Sequence record: NC_011042.1
Direction: 5' to 3' (one strand)
Length of the DNA stretch: 39,252 nt
DNA from: Escherichia phage EcoDS1
Both the position numbers and the translations under genes were made by a program. The notes below the pieces were generated by a model that was given only the letters and a program-made list of their open reading frames with translations, did not search any database and was not told where the DNA came from. The first letter of the stretch is position 1. The number at the start of each line of letters is the position of its first letter. Below are positions 2,336 through 39,252 of the stretch, one piece after another.

Positions 2336-5017
2336 ATGAGCGTCATCTCTATTGACAAACACGACTTCTCTGATGTGTCGAACGCCATTGAGCCGTTTAA
2401 CCTGCTGGCTGACCACTACGGGCAAGATCTTGCAGTCAAACAGCTTCAGCTTGAGCATGAGGCATACACTGAAGGCGAGCGACGTTTCATCAAGAACCTT
2501 GAGCGCCAGACTGAGCGCGGGGAACTGGCAGACAATCAGGTCGCCAAGCCTCTTATGCAGACTCTGGTACCTAAGATTGCGCAAGCCGTCAGGGAGTGGC
2601 ATGAAGGTCCAGACGGGAAGCTGTCAACCTCTCGTCCTAGCGTAGCGTTCACCATGTTGAGCACTGAAGAGAAGGCCGTCAAGGATCGCTCTCTTCGTAT
2701 CTCTTGCGAGTCTGCTTCGGTCATCATACTGAAGGTCATACTCTCCAAGCTGGTCAAGCCTGAAGGGATACCGATTACACCGATGGCCTCCGCGATAGGT
2801 CGCACACTTGAGGATGAAATCCGCTTCGGGCGCATTCGTGACAAGGAGAAAGAGCACTTCAAGAAGGCGATAGCTGATAACCTGAACAAGCGAGCTGGGG
2901 CATCCTACAAGAAAGCCTACATGCAAGCGGTTGAGACATCCATGCTGGAGCAGGGTCAACTGGAAGATGCGTGGGGAACTTGGAGTCCTACAGAGGCTGT
3001 CCACGTTGGCATCAAGATGCTTGAGATTGTCATCCAGTCAACACAACTGGTCGAGCTTAAGCGGTACGGTGCTGGCAATGCAGCGGCTGACGTAGAGATG
3101 GTCCACCTGTCAGACTTCTGGGTCAAGAAGATGGCACAACGAGGATTCAGCCTAGCGGGTATCGCTCCAGTCTACCAGCCTTGCGTCGTTCCACCTAAGC
3201 CGTGGACTGGTGTAGTAGGCGGTGGGTACTGGGCCAAGGGTCGCAGACCACTACCACTGATTCGCTTAGGGTCTAAGTCTGCGGTGGCACGTTACGAAGA
3301 CGTGTACATGCCTGAAGTCTATGACGCTGTGAATATCATCCAGAATACACCTTGGAAAGTTAACAAGAAGGTGCTGGAAGTGGTGAACATGGTCGAGAAG
3401 CTGAACAACACGCCTATTGATGACATCCCTCAGATGGAACCGCTGAAGCCTGAAGACTATGCAGGTGAGACTGAAGAGGAACTCAAGGCATGGAAGAAGG
3501 CTGCTGCTGGTATCTACCGCCGAGAGAAGGCCCGGCAGTCACGTAGATTGTCACTAAGCTTTATCGTCAACCAAGCGAACAAGTTCTCTCAATTCAAGGC
3601 CATATGGTTTCCGTACAATATGGACTGGCGCGGCCGTGTCTACGCTGTTCCGATGTTCAACCCTCAAGGTAATGACATGCAGAAGGGCCTTCTGACTCTG
3701 GCAGTCGGTAAGCCTATTGGTGCCGATGGGTTTAAATGGCTGAAGGTCCACGGTGCAAACTGCGCGGGTATCGATAAAGTAACCTTCGAGGAGCGCATCA
3801 AGTGGGTGGAGGACAACCACGACAACATCATGGCTACTGCTAAGGCACCGATGGATAGCATTGAGTGGTGGGGCAAGTTAGACTCTCCGTTTTGCTTCCT
3901 TGCGTTCTGCTTCGAGTATGCTGGCGTGATGCATCACGGATTGTCTTACTCCTGCTCGCTGCCAATAGCTTTCGATGGGTCCTGCTCTGGGATTCAGCAC
4001 TTCAGCGCGATGCTTCGTGATCACATCGGTGGACATGCAGTAAACCTGACGCCTTCCGGTAAGGTCCAAGACATCTACCGCATCGTGTCTGACCGCATTG
4101 AGGAGGAGCTTAAAGTCCTGCTGGTTAACGGCACGGACAACGAGATGGTAACTCACGAGGACAAGAAAACTGGTGAGATTACCGAACGTCTCAAGCTGGG
4201 GACACGAGAGCTGGCCCGGCAGTGGCTTACTTACGGCATGTCACGTAAGGTCACTAAGCGTTCGGTCATGACTCTGGCCTACGGGTCGAAAGAGTATGGC
4301 TTCGCAGACCAAGTTTACGAGGACATCGTGATGCCAGCGATTGACTCAGGGTCTGGCGCTATGTTCACTGAACCAAGCCAAGCGTCTCGCTTCATGGCTA
4401 AGATGATTTGGGAAGCTGTGAGCGTGACCGTAGTTGCTGCGGTTGACGCGATGAAGTGGCTTCAAGGTGCTGCCAAGCTGCTGGCTGCTGAAGTGAAAGA
4501 CAAGAAGACTGGAGAAATCCTGAAGCCTTGCCTTCCGGTACACTGGGTCACACCTGATGGGTTCCCGGTCTGGCAGGAATACCGCAAGAAGGATACCACT
4601 CGTCTGAACCTGATGTTCTTAGGGTCATTCAACCTTCAACCTACGGTCAACAAAGGCACGAAGAAAGAGTTGGATAAGCACAAGCAGGAGTCGGGCATTA
4701 GCCCGAACTTCGTCCACTCACAAGATGGTAGCCACCTCCGCAAGACTGTAGTCCACACGCACCGCAAGTATGGCGTGATGTCATTCGCAGTGATTCACGA
4801 TAGCTTCGGGACCATCCCGGCTGACGCTGAGTATCTGTTCCGTGGTGTCCGTGAGACGATGGTCGAGACCTACCGCGACAACGATGTGCTGCTTGACTTC
4901 TACGAGCAGTTCGAATACCAGCTTCACGAGAGCCAGCGCGACAAGTTGCCTGAGCTTCCGAAGAAAGGTAAACTGAATATCGAAGACATCTTGTCTTCAG
5001 ACTTTGCATTCGCTTAA
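2336..5017 (+). CDS. T7-type single-subunit DNA-directed RNA polymerase (gp1)
   Basis: 893 aa; long stretches match T7 RNAP (CVVPPKPWTG, AIWFPYNMDWRGRVYAV, DSPFCFLAFCFEYAGV, LPIAFDGSCSGIQHFSAMLRD, HDSFGT, C-terminal FAFA). Confidence 0.98.
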   Translation: MSVISIDKHDFSDVSNAIEPFNLLADHYGQDLAVKQLQLEHEAYTEGERRFIKNLERQTERGELADNQVAKPLMQTLVPKIAQAVREWHEGPDGKLSTSRPSVAFTMLSTEEKAVKDRSLRISCESASVIILKVILSKLVKPEGIPITPMASAIGRTLEDEIRFGRIRDKEKEHFKKAIADNLNKRAGASYKKAYMQAVETSMLEQGQLEDAWGTWSPTEAVHVGIKMLEIVIQSTQLVELKRYGAGNAAADVEMVHLSDFWVKKMAQRGFSLAGIAPVYQPCVVPPKPWTGVVGGGYWAKGRRPLPLIRLGSKSAVARYEDVYMPEVYDAVNIIQNTPWKVNKKVLEVVNMVEKLNNTPIDDIPQMEPLKPEDYAGETEEELKAWKKAAAGIYRREKARQSRRLSLSFIVNQANKFSQFKAIWFPYNMDWRGRVYAVPMFNPQGNDMQKGLLTLAVGKPIGADGFKWLKVHGANCAGIDKVTFEERIKWVEDNHDNIMATAKAPMDSIEWWGKLDSPFCFLAFCFEYAGVMHHGLSYSCSLPIAFDGSCSGIQHFSAMLRDHIGGHAVNLTPSGKVQDIYRIVSDRIEEELKVLLVNGTDNEMVTHEDKKTGEITERLKLGTRELARQWLTYGMSRKVTKRSVMTLAYGSKEYGFADQVYEDIVMPAIDSGSGAMFTEPSQASRFMAKMIWEAVSVTVVAAVDAMKWLQGAAKLLAAEVKDKKTGEILKPCLPVHWVTPDGFPVWQEYRKKDTTRLNLMFLGSFNLQPTVNKGTKKELDKHKQESGISPNFVHSQDGSHLRKTVVHTHRKYGVMSFAVIHDSFGTIPADAEYLFRGVRETMVETYRDNDVLLDFYEQFEYQLHESQRDKLPELPKKGKLNIEDILSSDFAFA

Positions 5018-5567: not shown

Positions 5568-6038
5568 ATGTTCGGTAAGTCAAAACTTAAAGCACAAATC
5601 AAAGAGTTGAGCATGAAGGTGGCATACTTGGCGCGAGAAGTAAAGGTCCTAGATAACAACAATGAGAGATTGAAGGGTAAACTTGCTGAATCAGAGCGTA
5701 AGCGCCTAACGCCACCAGCGTCCGTAACTGTCAAGCGTATGGTAGGCATCAAGTTCAAGGTACTGTTCAACGGGCTGTACCAACCGACTGAGTTCAAGAC
5801 TGGACCGGGTAACTGCGGTAAGAACGTTAAGCACTTCACTACATCGAAGACTGAACGCACCATTACCATCCACCAGCACCACATAGATGGGTCTCAGAAA
5901 GACTTCGAGTACCGACTGAGCGACATCGACGGTCGAATCCAGTATGACTATGAGCAAGTTAAAGTCTACGGAGAAGAGGCCGAACGTGAGCGAGAGCTTC
6001 AGGCATTCATGCGGGTAAGGCCGCGCATCATCTTCTAA
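5568..6038 (+). CDS. Hypothetical early protein (156 aa)
   Basis: ORF track; AGAGG RBS; N-terminal charged/coiled-coil-like region; its TAA stop lies inside the following phage promoter. Confidence 0.6.
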   Translation: MFGKSKLKAQIKELSMKVAYLAREVKVLDNNNERLKGKLAESERKRLTPPASVTVKRMVGIKFKVLFNGLYQPTEFKTGPGNCGKNVKHFTTSKTERTITIHQHHIDGSQKDFEYRLSDIDGRIQYDYEQVKVYGEEAERERELQAFMRVRPRIIF

Positions 6039-6056
6039 ACTATCACTATAGGATTA
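6034..6056 (+). promoter_or_regulatory. Phage-RNAP promoter (phi1.1-like)
   Basis: CTAAACTATCACTATAGGATTAG; +1 G at 6051. Confidence 0.8.
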
Positions 6057-6061
6057 GACTC

Positions 6062-6088
6062 AAGGTCATGACTCAGAGTCGTGGCCTT
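6062..6088 (+). other. RNase III-type processing hairpin (R1.1-like)
   Basis: AAGGUCAUGAC/GUCGUGGCCUU stem of 11 bp including G-U pairs, 5-nt loop; paralogous to the hairpins at 13055 and 35950. Confidence 0.5.
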
Positions 6089-6126
6089 CATGATTAACCC
6101 TAATAAACTACTGGAGATTTAACCGT

Positions 6127-10894: not shown

Positions 10895-11111
10895 ATGATT
10901 AAATTTATCGAATTTCTTGGTCGTCTGGTGGTGCGTGGTTATCGTCGTGCTGCGACTATGGAACGAAAGGTAGCACGAGAAGACTGCTGACGGTGCAGCG
11001 GATGCTGCTGCTCTGGCTGACAAGCTGACCATCGCGTCACTGGAAGCTGGTATGAAGGCACGTCAGGCTGACACCAAAGCCGACCAGCTGTCTCAGTTCT
11101 TCAAAGCCTAA
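10895..11111 (+). pseudogene. Possible frameshifted remnant ORF
   Basis: ATG at 10895 with AGGAGAG RBS gives 31 aa to TGA at 10988; an overlapping open frame continues to TAA at 11109..11111 but contains no ATG until near its end. Confidence 0.25.
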
Positions 11112-11130
11112 ACTATCACCTTAGGGATGG
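11108..11130 (+). promoter_or_regulatory. Phage-promoter-like element upstream of gene 4, divergent
   Basis: CTAAACTATCACCTTAGGGATGG: two mismatches in the CACTATA core. Confidence 0.4.
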
Positions 11131-11176
11131 GACCGTGAGTCCTGTCCCTCTGTTCGCATTTGTGATTAAGGAGTGA

Positions 11177-12868
<1,692 letters not shown>

Positions 12869-12879
12869 GGAGGAGTACA

Positions 12880-13044
12880 TTGCTAAGAAAACTTAAAGCT
12901 CGATACCATCGGTTCATGTACAAATGGTGGAGCGATGAAGCAACCTGCCTGTCGAACATTCTGGGAGACCAGCGGTTCAACTCTAAGGCATGGAAGAAAG
13001 CTAACCGTAAGTTTATGTACCACTTCTTGCGTACAGACTTATAG
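12880..13044 (+). CDS. Small basic protein (gene 4.x position)
   Basis: Open frame from 12841 (GTG); AAGGAGG at 12867..12873 favours the in-frame TTG at 12880, with an ATG at 12916 as alternative; Lys/Arg-rich. Confidence 0.4.
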   Translation: MLRKLKARYHRFMYKWWSDEATCLSNILGDQRFNSKAWKKANRKFMYHFLRTDL

Positions 13045-13054
13045 GTCTAAACTC

Positions 13055-13079
13055 AAGGTCATTCACATAGAGTGGCCTT
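13055..13079 (+). other. RNase III-type processing hairpin (R4.7-like)
   Basis: AAGGUCAUUC/GAGUGGCCUU stem, 5-nt loop; paralogue of 6062 and 35950. Confidence 0.5.
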
Positions 13080-13107
13080 TATGATTAGACTAAACGGAGG
13101 ATTAACC

Positions 13108-15279
13108 ATGTTTGACCTTAAGAGTATCTGGGGTTCTGACATCGAGACCAACGGTCTCCTTGATACAGTCTCCCAGTTTCACTGTGGGGTCCTGATTAAC
13201 GCCGAGTCGAATGAGACCCTTAAGTATGGGGTAGCTCCGATGGTCGGTATCGTCGGTGGCTTCAAAGAGTATGTTCATAAAGTGGAAGAGATTGCCGCAT
13301 CGCCTGATGGTATGCTGGTATTCCACAACGGTATCAACTATGACGTCCCGGCTATAGACAAGCTGAAGCGTCTGTACTTTGGGAAACGTTTTAACTTCCC
13401 GAAACACAAGATGATTGATACCTTGGTGCTGGGACGCTTGATGTATCCAAACATTAAGTTCTCAGACATGGGCGCAGTGAAAGCTGGTCGTCTGCCACCT
13501 CAGATGATGGGACGACAGTCTCTTGAGGCTTGGGGCTATCGTCTCGGTGAGATGAAAGGTGAATACAAACACGATTACGTTGCCAAATGCAAGGCTGAAG
13601 GTATCGAATATAAGGCTGGGGACGAATGGTTGTTCCCGTCTCAGGAGATGCTGGACTATAACGTTCAGGACGTTGTGGTCACACTGGCGTTGTTCAAGAA
13701 GTTCCTGACTGACAAGTATTACTTCCAGTCTGAACAGTTCGCTTTCGAGCAGATTTATGCGTTGCGTCTGGAACATGATGCTGCGTGGACCTGTGCGAAG
13801 ATGGAGCGTAACGGCTATCCGATGAACACCGAGATGGTAGAAGGCTTATATCGTGAACTCACTGTCAAACGTGCGGAGTTGCTGGACAAGCTGCGCTCGA
13901 CTTTCGGTAGCTGGTACGCACCAAAGGGAGGCAAGGAGTTCTTCAGGCATCCACGGACAGGTAAGGACCTTCCGAAGTATCCGAGGGTCGTGTATCCTAA
14001 GGTTGGTGGCATCTTTAAGAAGCCTAAGAACAAAGCCCAACGCTTAGGTCTTGAACCTTGTGAACGCGATACGCGAGACACGATGGAAGGAGCACCATTC
14101 ACGCCAATCACTTACGTTGAGTTTAATCCGGGAAGCGGAGACCACTTAGCGAAAGTCCTGATGGAGCGTGGCTGGGAGCCTGTGGACTTCACTGACACTG
14201 GGAAACCTGTAGTCGATGACGAGACGTTAGAACACGTTAAGTTACCAGACGCAGAGGCTCAGGATTGCGTAGAGCTGGTCCGTGAGTATCTGGTAGTCCA
14301 GAAGCGCATCGGACAGGCTGCTGAAGGTAAGAACGCATGGTTGAAACTTGTAGGTCCAGACGGGCGTATGCACGGTTCAATCAACCCTTGTGGAGCAGTA
14401 ACCGGACGTGCGACCCATAGTTCACCAAACATGGCTCAGGTCCCGGCTAATGGTGCTCCGTATGGTGAGACTTGCCGTGGTGCTTTCGGTGCAGCATGGA
14501 ACAAGAAGGATGGTAAGCCAGACCCTTGGATTCAAGTAGGTGTGGATGCTTCAGGTCTTGAGCTTCGTTGTCTAGGGAACCGAGCGGCTCCGTTTGATGG
14601 TGGTGAATACGCCAAGACTGTGGTCGAAGGTGACATCCACTGGGCCAACGCTGTCAACGCTGGGTTAGCACCTAACGTCAAGCGCGATAAGTCGAACCAC
14701 GAGCATGAGGCTTTCCGTAACAACGCTAAGACGTTCATCTATGCGTTCCTGTATGGTGCAGGGGCAGCTAAGATTGGACTGATAGTCGGCGGTGGCAAGA
14801 AGGAAGGTGCGGCCTTGATGAAGAAATTCATTGAGGGTACACCAGCCATCAAGGACCTCAGGGAAGCTGTGAGTAATACGTTAATCTCAGACTCTAAGTG
14901 GGTGGACGGAGAGAACATCGTTAAATGGAAACGCCGTTGGTTGCGTGGACTCGATGGTCGACGTATACACATCCGGTCTCCACACTCAGCACTGAACGCG
15001 TTACTTCAGGGCGATGGTGCGGTAGTTTGTAAGCACTGGATTGTCGAGACAGAACGTATGCTAGAAGAGGCCGGGTATATCCACGGCTGGGAAGGAGACT
15101 TCGCGTACATGGCATGGGTTCACGACGAATTACAGATTGCGTGTCGTACTCAGGAGATTGCCGAAGAAGTCGTCAAGATTGCTCAACTTGCTATGCGTAA
15201 GGTGGGTGAGTTCTATAACTTTAAATGTGTCCTTGATACCGAAGGTAAGATTGGACCAACGTGGAAGGAGTGTCACTAA
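13108..15279 (+). CDS. DNA polymerase (gp5)
   Basis: About 723 aa from the ATG at 13108 (GGAGG RBS; the ORF-track start at 13072 is an in-frame GTG); DIE exonuclease motif, YNVQDVVVT, PKYPRVVYPKVGGIFKKPKNKAQR, AKTFIYAFLYGAG, VHDE match T7 gp5. Confidence 0.97.
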   Translation: MFDLKSIWGSDIETNGLLDTVSQFHCGVLINAESNETLKYGVAPMVGIVGGFKEYVHKVEEIAASPDGMLVFHNGINYDVPAIDKLKRLYFGKRFNFPKHKMIDTLVLGRLMYPNIKFSDMGAVKAGRLPPQMMGRQSLEAWGYRLGEMKGEYKHDYVAKCKAEGIEYKAGDEWLFPSQEMLDYNVQDVVVTLALFKKFLTDKYYFQSEQFAFEQIYALRLEHDAAWTCAKMERNGYPMNTEMVEGLYRELTVKRAELLDKLRSTFGSWYAPKGGKEFFRHPRTGKDLPKYPRVVYPKVGGIFKKPKNKAQRLGLEPCERDTRDTMEGAPFTPITYVEFNPGSGDHLAKVLMERGWEPVDFTDTGKPVVDDETLEHVKLPDAEAQDCVELVREYLVVQKRIGQAAEGKNAWLKLVGPDGRMHGSINPCGAVTGRATHSSPNMAQVPANGAPYGETCRGAFGAAWNKKDGKPDPWIQVGVDASGLELRCLGNRAAPFDGGEYAKTVVEGDIHWANAVNAGLAPNVKRDKSNHEHEAFRNNAKTFIYAFLYGAGAAKIGLIVGGGKKEGAALMKKFIEGTPAIKDLREAVSNTLISDSKWVDGENIVKWKRRWLRGLDGRRIHIRSPHSALNALLQGDGAVVCKHWIVETERMLEEAGYIHGWEGDFAYMAWVHDELQIACRTQEIAEEVVKIAQLAMRKVGEFYNFKCVLDTEGKIGPTWKECH

Positions 15280-15578
15280 TGGCTATGACCAAACGCGCTA
15301 TCGTAAGTTTCAACCTTAAGGCTGTACTTCCTACAGACCAAGAGGAAATCATCATTGAGGGCCTGCGAGAGTTGGCTAAGGGCGTCCACTCAGGTGAAAT
15401 CAAGCCTGACGGTAAGCAGCGCCATATGTTGACCCTGTGGCTGACAGAAGGTATGGACGCAGTGATTGAGTTTGTTCTTCGTGACAGCTTCCGTTCAATG
15501 GTTAAAGAGGCTGTACAGGAGTATTCAGACACAGAGTTCTTCAGTGTCTCACCAGCTACTGTGAGGTTCAAGCAATGA
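15279..15578 (+). CDS. gp5.5-like protein (H-NS-binding family in T7)
   Basis: 99 aa from the ATG overlapping the gene 5 stop; MAMTK..VSF N-terminus and SPATVR near the C-terminus as in T7 gp5.5. Confidence 0.75.
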   Translation: MAMTKRAIVSFNLKAVLPTDQEEIIIEGLRELAKGVHSGEIKPDGKQRHMLTLWLTEGMDAVIEFVLRDSFRSMVKEAVQEYSDTEFFSVSPATVRFKQ

Positions 15579-15784
15579 GTGAATACTTACGGGTCCTAGC
15601 GGCCCTTAAGTCCTGCCCGAAGACCTTTCAGTCAAACTATGTGCGCAACAACGCTGCACTTGTGGCTGAGGCTGCGAGTCGTGGACATCTAAGCTGCCTG
15701 TCTATGGATGGGCGTAACAACGGTGCGTGGGAGATTACCGCTGCTGGCACCAAGTTCCTGAACCAACACGGAGGCTGTCTATGA
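15575..15784 (+). CDS. gp5.7-like protein
   Basis: 69 aa; KSCPKTFQSNYVRNNAALVAEAASRGH matches T7 gp5.7 as I recall it; positional support. Confidence 0.75.
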   Translation: MSEYLRVLAALKSCPKTFQSNYVRNNAALVAEAASRGHLSCLSMDGRNNGAWEITAAGTKFLNQHGGCL

Positions 15785-15999
15785 GTCAAGACGTATCAGG
15801 TCGCGAACTTAAGGTAGGACAGAAGGTTGCTTTCTGTCTGGCTGGCAAATCATACGCAATGTGTATAGGCGAAGTCGTCCGGGTAATGCCTAAGACGGTA
15901 GCCATCAAGCATAAGACATTTATTCGCTGGAAGGGAGCTGCCGAGGAAGTCGAGACGGTACGTGCATTCTCTTCAGTGTGTATCGTTGAGGAGGCGTAA
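15781..15999 (+). CDS. Hypothetical protein (72 aa) at the gene 5.9 position
   Basis: ATGA coupling to gp5.7; no resemblance to the T7 gp5.9 RecBCD inhibitor; the ORF-track entry from 15727 is an upstream in-frame extension. Confidence 0.55.
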   Translation: MSQDVSGRELKVGQKVAFCLAGKSYAMCIGEVVRVMPKTVAIKHKTFIRWKGAAEEVETVRAFSSVCIVEEA

Positions 16000-16865
16000 T
16001 GTCTGACAAGAAGATAGCTCTGGTTCTGGATGGTGACTATCTGGTATTCTCTTCTATGGCTGCGGCTGAGGATGAGACCGATTGGGGCGATGATATTTAT
16101 ACTCTGATTTGTGACCACGCCAAGGCTCGTCGTATCCTTGAGAACACCATTGCTGAAATCGTTAAGAAGCGAAAGGCGTGGAAAGACGCTAAGATTGTTA
16201 TGTGCTTCACCGATGACGTGAACTGGCGCAAGTCAATACTACCGACCTATAAGGCCAACCGTAAAGGTTCTCGCAAGCCTGTAGGATACAAGAAGTTCGT
16301 AGCCGAAGTGATGGCTGACCCACGGTTCAACAGCTTCCTACGTCCTACGCTTGAGGGTGATGACTGTATGGGTATCATCGGGACCAGACCTCAGATTGTT
16401 GGCTGTGACCATGCGGTGCTGGTATCCTGCGATAAGGACTTCAAGACCATCCCGAACTGTGAGTTCTTCTGGTTAACCACTGGTGAAATCCTGAGCCATA
16501 CGACTGCTGAGGCAGACTACTGGCACATGGAGCAAACCATCAAGGGTGACAGTACAGATGGCTACGGTGGCATTCCGGGGATGGGTGAGGATACCACTCG
16601 TGCGTTCCTTGATGAGCCGTACTACTTCGTGCAGGAGAGCCGTGAGCTTAAGACTGGTAAGAACAAAGGCCAGATTAAGACTGAGTGGAAGAAGTATCCT
16701 AAGCGTGAAGACATGACGATTTGGGACTGTATGGTGACTCTGGCTGCTAAAGCTGGGATGACCGAGGAGGAACTTCTGGTCCAAGCTCAAGTCGCTCGTA
16801 TTTGTCGAGCCTCTGACTATGACCCTAAGTCCAAGGAGGTCATCCTGTGGACACCATCCATGTAA
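15999..16865 (+). CDS. 5'-3' exonuclease (gp6)
   Basis: 288 aa; CDHAKARRILE, FTDDVNWRK, YKANRK, KPVGY, SCDKDFKTIPNCEFFW, TIKGDSTDGYGGIPG, GKNKGQ, WDCMVTLAAKAGMTEEEL match T7 gp6. Confidence 0.95.
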   Translation: MSDKKIALVLDGDYLVFSSMAAAEDETDWGDDIYTLICDHAKARRILENTIAEIVKKRKAWKDAKIVMCFTDDVNWRKSILPTYKANRKGSRKPVGYKKFVAEVMADPRFNSFLRPTLEGDDCMGIIGTRPQIVGCDHAVLVSCDKDFKTIPNCEFFWLTTGEILSHTTAEADYWHMEQTIKGDSTDGYGGIPGMGEDTTRAFLDEPYYFVQESRELKTGKNKGQIKTEWKKYPKREDMTIWDCMVTLAAKAGMTEEELLVQAQVARICRASDYDPKSKEVILWTPSM

Positions 16866-16991
16866 TTTACTGGGCCGGACTTCTGGCCCTTTACTGCATG
16901 TACAAGTGGTTCGGGTCGAACAACCGCCCTAAACACTGAGTCTAACCGATAGTCATATCCTATCAATCCAACAGTCATCCATAGGTGAAAC

Positions 16992-17014
16992 ACTAAACTA
17001 TCACTATAGGGACT
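16992..17014 (+). promoter_or_regulatory. Phage-RNAP promoter (phi6.5-like)
   Basis: CACTAAACTATCACTATAGGGACT; +1 G at 17009. Confidence 0.8.
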
Positions 17015-35929: not shown

Positions 35930-35949
35930 ATCTCTTAAGTGTTAGACTC

Positions 35950-35976
35950 AAGGTCATTACTGTATGTAGTGGCCTT
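35950..35976 (+). other. RNase III-type processing hairpin (R18.5-like)
   Basis: AAGGUCAUUAC/GUAGUGGCCUU 11-bp stem with G-U pairs, 5-nt loop; third paralogue. Confidence 0.5.
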
Positions 35977-36039
35977 TATGGTTAACACTAACTAGTGGAG
36001 GAGACTCTACGTGAAATCTGATAAACCGGGAGGGCACCC

Positions 36040-39074: not shown

Positions 39075-39252
39075 TCTCACAGTTCAAGAACCTCAAGTCT
39101 CCCCATAGGCCCTCTTTCAGTCCAGACCAAAGGCCCTACCCCAGTCTATCATAAGGTTGGACCGATGGTCAAGACGTTAGGTCGACGATAGGTTGCGGCT
39201 ATGGCTTAGGGAAGGACGATAGGTAGGGACTATGGGTCTTCTTTGAGTCTCT
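39075..39252. repeat. Right direct terminal repeat (DTR), 178 bp
   Basis: Identical to 1..178. Confidence 0.9.

Follow-up and report, generated by a model that had tools for sequence, protein, structure and literature searches.

Gene order and transcription around ORF72

The DNA analyzed in this study, called the window, is the 39,252-nucleotide sequence of Escherichia phage EcoDS1 (NC_011042.1), a complete Kayfunavirus (K1F-like, T7-like) genome; its completeness is indicated by the direct terminal repeats of 178 bp found by repeat analysis (1-178 and 39075-39252), together with the presence of at least 11 phage promoters. Within the window, the gene order in the region of interest is DNA polymerase, gp5.5, gp5.7, a 72-codon open reading frame (ORF72), and the gene 6 exonuclease. 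The gene 5.5 homologue (15279..15578, plus strand) encodes a 99-aa member of the H-NS-binding family (phrog_1452, E = 2e-32; Pfam Phage_T7_55, E = 7e-23), and the gene 5.7 homologue (15575..15784, plus strand) encodes a 69-aa protein (phrog_1334, E = 7e-39). The target of gp5.5 is H-NS, while that of gp5.7 is sigma-S RNA polymerase. Gene 6 (15999..16865, plus strand) encodes a 288-aa 5'-3' exonuclease (phrog_107, E = 4e-79; 5_3_exonuc_N). A megablast search with positions 15200-16400 retrieved 225 phage records, mostly named as Escherichia or Salmonella phages and some named as Kayfunavirus; the close relatives that carry annotation are classified in Kayfunavirus.

ORF72 occupies 15781..15999 on the plus strand (219 nt, 72 aa plus the TAA stop codon at 15997-15999) and encodes a protein of the PHROG 2251 family with the translation MSQDVSGRELKVGQKVAFCLAGKSYAMCIGEVVRVMPKTVAIKHKTFIRWKGAAEEVETVRAFSSVCIVEEA. 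Its ATG (15781-15783) overlaps the TGA stop codon of gene 5.7 (15782-15784) in the sequence ATGA (15781..15784, plus strand), and the final codons of gene 5.7 also contain a Shine-Dalgarno sequence, GGAGG (15770..15774, plus strand), at a distance of 6 nt from the ATG. The downstream junction is equally compact: the last codons of ORF72 (VEEA) contain GAGGAGG (15988..15994, plus strand), the ribosome-binding site of gene 6, and the TAA stop codon has one base in common with the gene 6 ATG (15999-16001), giving TAATG. Judged from these overlaps, translational coupling links ORF72 with gene 5.7 on its upstream side and with the gene 6 exonuclease on its downstream side. The preliminary description had placed a 72-aa ORF longer than gp5.9 at the gene 5.9 position, coupled to gp5.7 by an ATGA overlap, and both the position between genes 5.7 and 6 and the overlap are confirmed in the sequence. 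An alternative GTG start at 15727 (90 aa) was rejected because the homologues begin at the ATG and because GGAGG stands 6 nt upstream of that ATG.

The phage promoter, CTAAACTATCACTATAGG(G/A)A, is present in at least 11 copies in the genome by repeat analysis: at 6035, 7726, 8720, 11108, 16993, 19814, 20820, 25368, 33041, and 38501 (repeat families D2/D3), with one further copy at about 2243 (repeat family D4). The same analysis found no copy between 11108 and 16993; ORF72 thus lacks its own promoter and shares the class II message of genes 4 to 6. The next copy downstream of gene 6 is CTAAACTATCACTATAGGGA (16993..17012, plus strand, families D2/D3). Around ORF72 there is no Rfam family and no excess of promoter-like or terminator-like signals, and no paralogue of ORF72 was found elsewhere in the EcoDS1 genome.

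ORF72 is a true protein-coding gene on which purifying selection acts. Differences among seven kayfunavirus copies are mostly synonymous, and pairs of diverged copies (dS 0.35-0.74) have dN/dS ratios of 0.06-0.18 by the Nei-Gojobori method. In phage Peacock, a 98.6%-identical ORF with the same coupling is annotated as a CDS (hypothetical protein QEG09694.1). These low ratios and this annotation, along with Pseudomonas myovirus homologues that are about 40% identical and a confident AlphaFold2 model, argue that ORF72 is real rather than a chance reading frame. The amino acid variation within the genus clusters at residues 45-54, which correspond to the region from strand 3 to strand 4 of the model, with residues 49-52 forming a loop.

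A single-gene slot between genes 5.7 and 6

To place ORF72 among the occupants of this junction, 78 loci with relatives of gene 6 were fetched from IMG/VR, of which 74 have both gp5.7 and gp6. The loci were grouped by gp6 identity to EcoDS1 as close (at least 85%), mid (45-70%), or far (less than 45%), and an interval of less than 60 bp was counted as empty. Proteins of the PHROG 2251 family occupy 11 of the 74 loci (8 close, 3 mid, and 0 far), while proteins of the gp5.9 family occupy nine (1 close, 8 mid, and 0 far). Other proteins are the most frequent occupants, with 34 loci (7 close, 16 mid, and 11 far), and the slot is empty in 20 (8 close, 10 mid, and 2 far). None of the 74 loci has both the PHROG 2251 family and the gp5.9 family.

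The close group, 24 loci whose gp6 is at least 86% identical to that of EcoDS1, illustrates the diversity of the cargo. Its eight PHROG 2251 occupants consist of three of the ORF72 type and five of a 91/92-aa type (PHROG 2251 match, E = 1.5e-18). The seven other occupants are a 149-aa protein (five loci, phrog_4382) and a 110-aa protein (two loci, phrog_18166), and the single gp5.9-family occupant is a 66-aa acidic protein from a sister kayfunavirus, L022 (PF25708, E = 4e-15). In GenBank, ORF72 is present in about 26 of the 225 related records (about 12%). On its left side the slot has a conserved flank in the same genomes, gp5.7 being 93-100% identical in 23 of the 24 close relatives and 87% identical in the remaining one (L026). 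Conversely, the gp5.5 alleles found beside ORF72 differ greatly, with 92% identity in L005 and only 34-37% in L023 and L027, which indicates that ORF72 moves independently of its neighbors.

The junction itself is precise. In phages with an empty slot it reads GGAGGCTGTCT-ATGAGTGAGAAGAAG, where the second part is the start of gene 6 (MSEKK), and in EcoDS1 it reads GGAGGCTGTCT-ATGAGTCAAGAC, where the second part is the start of ORF72 (MSQD). The same GGAGGCTGTCTATGAGT that precedes ORF72 directly serves gene 6 in the empty-slot relatives; a slot occupant thus takes over the ribosome-binding site that gene 6 uses in its absence. All slot occupants begin with Met-Ser at a common GGAGGCTGTCT-ATGAGT junction; cassettes are therefore exchanged at the microhomology of the ribosome-binding site and start codon, each inheriting the coupling to gp5.7.

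ORF72 is therefore one of many interchangeable cargo genes in a hypervariable and dispensable accessory slot. Phage accessory regions have been described as hotspots where the genes lying between conserved core genes vary, and they have been linked to anti-defense genes (bioRxiv 10.1101/2023.04.06.535777). The 5.7|6 interval resembles such regions in having conserved flanks (gp5.7 as above and gp6 with 93-98% identity) around cargo that is unrelated or absent in otherwise nearly identical genomes, but differs in being a single-gene slot with a precise start-codon and ribosome-binding-site junction rather than a multi-gene island.

These observations bear on the proposal in the preliminary description that ORF72 may be a replacement for gp5.9. 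Since gp5.9-family proteins are found at the same junction in L022 and in other Studiervirinae, the idea holds in the sense that ORF72 and the gp5.9 family are alternative cargo of one slot. As worded, however, a lineage-specific replacement is not supported; the term implies that gp5.9 was ancestral and that there was a job needing to be filled, while within the close group only one of the 24 loci has the gp5.9 family and eight are empty. The distribution in this group (8 empty, 8 PHROG 2251, 7 other, and 1 gp5.9) instead indicates that the slot is dispensable and hypervariable, and that gp5.9 is neither its usual nor its ancestral occupant in this genus. The expectation derived from T7 needs to be corrected accordingly: the gene preceding the exonuclease need not be a RecBCD inhibitor, and the K1F-like junction is a site at which single genes are swapped. 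Sister phages that differ only in the cassette (empty, ORF72, the 91-aa PHROG 2251 protein, the gp5.9-like protein, or the 110-aa or 149-aa protein) offer near-isogenic material for studying the contribution of the slot to host range.

Comparison with gp5.9

The protein encoded at this position in T7, gp5.9, is an inhibitor of RecBCD and MukBEF. The T7 sequence (NC_001604) bears out its earlier description as a 52-aa acidic protein, with a pI of 4.1 and a net charge of -8.5. ORF72, by comparison, has a pI of 8.9 and a net charge of +2.6, with eight Asp and Glu residues versus 11 Lys and Arg residues. The structure of gp5.9 is an acidic, parallel coiled-coil dimer, alpha-helical, that mimics DNA through a surface of Asp and Glu (eLife 2022, PMC9836394). 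The likeness of the two proteins lies in their location between genes 5.7 and 6, their small size, their coupling to gene 6, and the dispensability of the slot. They differ in that ORF72 has no sequence or profile similarity to T7 gp5.9 (PF25708; phrog_9014/4790/6234), is basic instead of acidic, and is predicted to be a barrel and not a coiled-coil dimer.

The statement in the preliminary description that the ORF has no resemblance to gp5.9 stands after three kinds of comparison. BLASTP of ORF72 against T7 gp5.9 gave no alignment at E ≤ 100, the Pfam model PF25708 (Phage_T7_Gp5_9) gave no match to ORF72 or its homologues at E ≤ 10, and an hhalign profile comparison between the ORF72 family and the gp5.9 family gave a probability of 0.2%. 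The PF25708 model was validated on real members, namely T7 gp5.9 (2e-6), L035 (3e-19), and L022 (4e-15), and it recognizes the acidic "GVDNW" proteins at the 5.7|6 junction of other phages. A gp5.9-family protein is also absent from the six frames of EcoDS1, as searched with six queries by tblastn and phmmer and with a profile (best E of 0.13 by tblastn and 0.17 with the profile). ORF72 is thus neither a gp5.9 homologue nor an acidic DNA mimic, and since it is basic and predicted to form a barrel, it cannot act by DNA mimicry.

Protein family and distribution

ORF72 matches phrog_2251 over its full length (E = 9.9e-22; residues 2-71 on profile positions 2-71 of 74). The precomputed label PF23835.2 (DUF7205) is attached to all close homologues and to those from Pakpunavirus; the local PF23835.1 model gave no match to ORF72 at E ≤ 10 and matched a distant member with E = 0.19. 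The only Pfam match of ORF72 at E ≤ 10 is to CusF_Ec, below threshold, so that Pfam yields nothing above threshold, and no match was found in NCBIfam or PADLOC. A profile search of PDB sequences returned one match at chance level (E = 0.75). Homology to a characterized non-defense protein was likewise not found in Pfam, NCBIfam, PADLOC, PDB, or BFVD.

By tblastn, the ORF72 protein is encoded in 157 phage records, 26 of which are of the Kayfunavirus type (at least 80% identical). The other 131 are Pseudomonas phages with less than 60% identity, mostly Pakpunavirus myoviruses; among the matches listed, the Pseudomonas homologues are 32-49% identical and mostly about 40%. These 131 records compare with about 121 that have a ligase at the Pakpunavirus level (at least 90%), which indicates that the gene is essentially universal in Pakpunavirus. 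The PHROG 2251 profile also matches occupants of 91, 69, and 74 aa in the same slot of other Studiervirinae. The family is thus both widespread and conserved, being present in about 12% of the related GenBank records, in essentially all Pakpunavirus, and in other Autographiviridae.

When 1.84 billion representative proteins were searched exhaustively with a profile, 90 clusters were found at E ≤ 1e-3, almost all of them stand-alone proteins of 60-90 aa, and a pattern-limited search of 185,579 bacterial and archaeal genomes, which could miss distant relatives, confirmed none. PHROG 2251 is therefore a phage-restricted family of stand-alone 60-90-aa proteins. The exhaustive search also returned large multi-repeat matches, including Tudor/Agenet arrays (P0021) and bacterial repeated barrel units (P0051, P0090, and P0099). 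These were taken as matches at the level of the superfold and were rejected as functional leads.

D4 and V16 are present in all of 78 aligned members, and G13 (96%), K38 (90%), G30 (88%), R61 (86%), and G7 (within 86-96%) are nearly invariant. ORF72 carries the N-terminal D-x-x-G...VG(D/Q)xVAF motif and the G-x-V...PKTV motif of the family, including D4, G13, V16, G30, K38, and R61. The median pI of the family is 8.9, with 60 of the 78 members above 7.5 and six acidic (pI less than 6). Cys19 and Cys67 are conserved in close relatives of ORF72, but a metal site or disulfide bond formed by them was rejected because Cys is found in only 31% of the family at each position.

ORF72 shows no material difference from the other members of PHROG 2251; those from Pakpunavirus (including PAK_P1 ADD64993.1) and from phage EM are 40-49% identical to it and have the same length and pattern of conserved residues. 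It is an ordinary member of an already catalogued family, and the membership names ORF72 without explaining its function. No experimental characterization of any PHROG 2251/DUF7205 member was found in the literature searched. Two phage accessory-gene screens contain no peptide strings of the family in their supplements, and the terms SH3, Tudor, KOW, and beta-barrel are absent from the EVADES anti-defense preprint. Taken alone, ORF72 is an unremarkable hypothetical protein from a region already known to be variable.

Among the homologues in other phages, that of PAK_P1 sits in a series of small early/middle genes, and the genes for dCMP deaminase and DNA ligase follow it two genes downstream. 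In phage Bitten, the homologue is two genes downstream of dCMP deaminase, with a 174-aa hypothetical protein between them, and its stop codon overlaps the start of the ligase gene. In Warsawvirus phTUNSv, a T7-like Pseudomonas phage, the homologue is located between the genes for ligase and dNMP kinase. The neighbors of the family are therefore recurrently enzymes acting on DNA ends or nucleotides: an exonuclease in EcoDS1, and DNA ligase, dCMP deaminase, and dNMP kinase in the Pseudomonas phages.

Predicted fold

Structure prediction had been suggested in the preliminary description as one of the checks. The AlphaFold2 model of ORF72, built from a 13-sequence alignment, has a mean pLDDT of 88.6 and a pTM of 0.74, and contains five beta-strands and no helix of four or more residues, giving an all-beta barrel unlike the gp5.9 coiled coil. 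The protein is predicted to be a small Tudor/KOW/SH3-like beta-barrel, that is, a five-stranded, highly bent, antiparallel barrel of about 55-70 residues. Small barrels of this fold are typical of nucleic acid and protein adaptors. Foldseek comparison to the PDB gave a best E of only 0.015 and no match that points to a specific ligand, while the matches in BFVD, a collection of predicted viral structures, are all uncharacterized phage proteins, many of them from Autographiviridae. Being small and predicted to fold well, ORF72 would be a cheap experimental target.

The resemblance to known barrels does not extend to sequence. Identity to the Tudor domains of Sgf29 and PHF19, the KOW domains of Spt5/NusG, eL21, NdhS, and KapB is 8-21%; the Pfam models for Tudor, KOW (PF00467), and SH3 are not matched by ORF72, which stands alone without a partner domain. 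The likeness suggested by the model is therefore one of fold and transfers no ligand. Another case is Phage_ProQ_C_like (PF24203), a domain of phage proteins similar to the C-terminal, Tudor-like part of the RNA chaperone ProQ. Weak matches to this model cover the first 40 residues or so in five of 13 close homologues and two distant members (E from 0.03 to 2e-4), but all family scores are below the 27-bit gathering cutoff and ORF72 itself has no match. PF24203 and ORF72 are at most distant relatives within the same barrel superfold.

Possible functions of ORF72

ORF72 is probably best described as slot cargo maintained by purifying selection, whose product, a PHROG 2251 predicted barrel, would be a small binding module acting in the phase of DNA metabolism. 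The combination of a basic family, a fold of the adaptor type, and neighbors that act on DNA ends or nucleotides makes a binding module in that phase the most likely functional reading, although confidence in it is low, and the role is taken to be conditionally beneficial. The protein is made from the class II (DNA-metabolism) message under coupling to genes 5.7 and 6. Under this reading, its ligand would be phage DNA or RNA, or a host protein that handles nucleic acids; the advantage it provides would be conditional and dependent on the host, and its function would not be essential. Core-like conservation in Pakpunavirus was also counted toward a module serving phage DNA transactions. Nucleic acid binding cannot be universal in the family, since six of the 78 members are acidic.

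Several observations weigh on the other side. The fold is generic, and D4, G7, G13, V16, G30, K38, and R61 could be conserved for purely structural reasons. The linkage to DNA metabolism may reflect residence in an early/middle gene cluster, and the cases from Pseudomonas myoviruses are not independent of each other. The patchiness in Kayfunavirus (about 12%), together with the exchange with the gp5.9 family, fits counter-defense at least as well.

Counter-defense or host takeover is the main alternative, and it is possible though doubtful that ORF72 neutralizes a host protein, such as RecBCD (by means other than mimicry), another nuclease, a defense sensor, or a factor of transcription or the chromosome. 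By analogy, its neighbors gp5.5 and gp5.7, as well as gp5.9, may suggest a function of this kind. The junction is that of the gp5.9-family RecBCD inhibitors in T7 and other Studiervirinae, no locus has both families, and EcoDS1 is without a gp5.9-family gene. ORF72 is patchy among nearly identical genomes (26 of 225 in GenBank and 3 of the 24 close IMG/VR loci), its variation at residues 45-54 is what would be expected of an evolving contact surface, and its independent movement relative to the gp5.5 allele is a signature of accessory regions (bioRxiv 10.1101/2023.04.06.535777). However, the gene is near-universal in Pakpunavirus, which is core-like rather than the patchy distribution of an arms race, and the low dN/dS (0.06-0.18) gives no sign of diversifying selection. 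The empty slot in one third of close relatives indicates that no obligatory function has been substituted, a basic beta-barrel cannot mimic DNA as gp5.9 and Gam do, and neither PADLOC nor the anti-defense literature searched contained anything on the family. The binding-module and counter-defense readings are not mutually exclusive.

A more specific proposal, which is unlikely, is that the PHROG 2251 barrels form a second and structurally unrelated class of antagonists directed against RecBCD or another nuclease or defense hub that senses DNA ends. Such barrels would swap with the gp5.9-family mimics, and would bind DNA ends or nicks or the surface of the enzyme instead of acting by mimicry. 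If true, this proposal would also account for the presence of exonuclease and ligase genes beside the family in phages that are unrelated.

It is more improbable still that ORF72 is a neutral passenger, with recombination at the ATGAGT/ribosome-binding-site junction shuffling small ORFs that have no function of their own and with only the coupling to gene 6 being of consequence. The slot is indeed empty in 20 of the 74 loci, at least five unrelated occupants are tolerated in close relatives, and all occupants have the same junction and Met-Ser start. Strong purifying selection (dN/dS 0.06-0.18) argues against such neutrality, as do the identity of about 40% kept between podoviruses of Enterobacteria and myoviruses of Pseudomonas and the compact fold that is confidently predicted. 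Invariant D4 and V16, along with G7, G13, G30, K38, and R61 at 86% or more, would also be unexpected in a functionless peptide.

Finally, the suggestion that ORF72 is orthologous to gp5.9 and is still a DNA mimic that inhibits RecBCD, its sequence having drifted past recognition, has as its sole support the T7-like position between genes 5.7 and 6 with coupling to gene 6, and is ruled out as far as computation allows by the negative BLASTP and hhalign comparisons, by a PF25708 model that misses ORF72 yet finds the 66-aa protein of the sister kayfunavirus at 4e-15, by a pI of 8.9 versus 4.1, and by an all-beta prediction versus a solved coiled-coil helical dimer.

Mosaicism around the 5.7|6 junction

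Among the loci L005-L027 (IMG/VR loci encoding relatives of gene 6), gp5.5, the H-NS-binding family protein encoded at window 15279-15578, occurs as highly divergent alleles. In phages with gp5.7 and gp6 at least 93% identical, gp5.5 identity to the window falls into two classes, 29-42% versus 89-93%, and the C-terminal part of DNA polymerase is likewise variable in the same comparison (59-86%). The entire 5 to 6 interval is a mosaic.

The slot between genes 5.7 and 6 has different occupants in related phages, and in four sister kayfunaviruses (L010, L020, L021, and L023) unrelated slot proteins share one C-terminal tail, ...KLLAATVPAMSKAKAVS(D/N)E, located at approximately 2940-3005 in each locus. 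The slot proteins of L007 and L009 have a weaker version of this tail. A tail common to unrelated proteins implies that some 55 bp of DNA directly 5' of gene 6 are conserved and form a segment read in frame by any cassette in front of it. The window does not have this segment, and ORF72, the 72-aa gene in its slot, directly abuts gene 6. In L023 (2666-3001) the ORF72 stop codon is replaced by a sense codon, and the 111-aa product continues from ORF72 into the common slot tail and then a CxxC...HxC motif. Among the protein clusters from the profile search with the ORF72 family, P0020, a distant family member of 136 aa, also has a zinc-ribbon-like C-terminal tail (CPxC...CPxC). P0051, P0090, and P0099 are proteins of about 290 aa with two to four tandem units of a related barrel, VGD.V.F...G.V.RVN.KT.S...WRV.P.

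Other slots are occupied by acidic proteins matching the Pfam gp5.9 model, at L022 2808-3008 and in the slot ORFs of L035, L046, L050, and L053. These have in common the motif GVDNW(E/D/S)(G/W)Y, which T7 gp5.9 itself does not have, and the gp5.9 family is wider and more diverse than its T7 prototype.

ORF72 is also found, at 94% identity, in PV615262.1, a Kayfunavirus-type genome deposited with Acinetobacter baumannii as host. PV615263.1, from the same submitters, is a near-identical E. coli phage; the Acinetobacter assignment may merit checking.

Genome organization

A sequence resembling a phage RNA polymerase promoter, CTAAACTATCACTATAGG(G/A)A, occurs at least 11 times in the window, at about 2243 and at 6035, 7726, 8720, 11108, 16993, 19814, 20820, 25368, 33041, and 38501. 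The interval from 11108 to 16993 has no further copy, so a single transcription unit covers genes 4 to 6 and ORF72 with them. TATAGG..TAAACTCAAGGTCAT...AGTGGCCTTTATGATTA is a conserved element, about 50 nt long, that is found three times (6047-6096, 13040-13087, and 35935-35984), once immediately 5' of the DNA polymerase gene; by analogy with T7, its copies may be RNase III processing sites. Perfect 178-bp direct repeats at both termini (1-178 and 39075-39252) show that the window represents a linear T7-like genome in full. The left terminal repeat is followed by two tandem 58-nt copies at 185-300.
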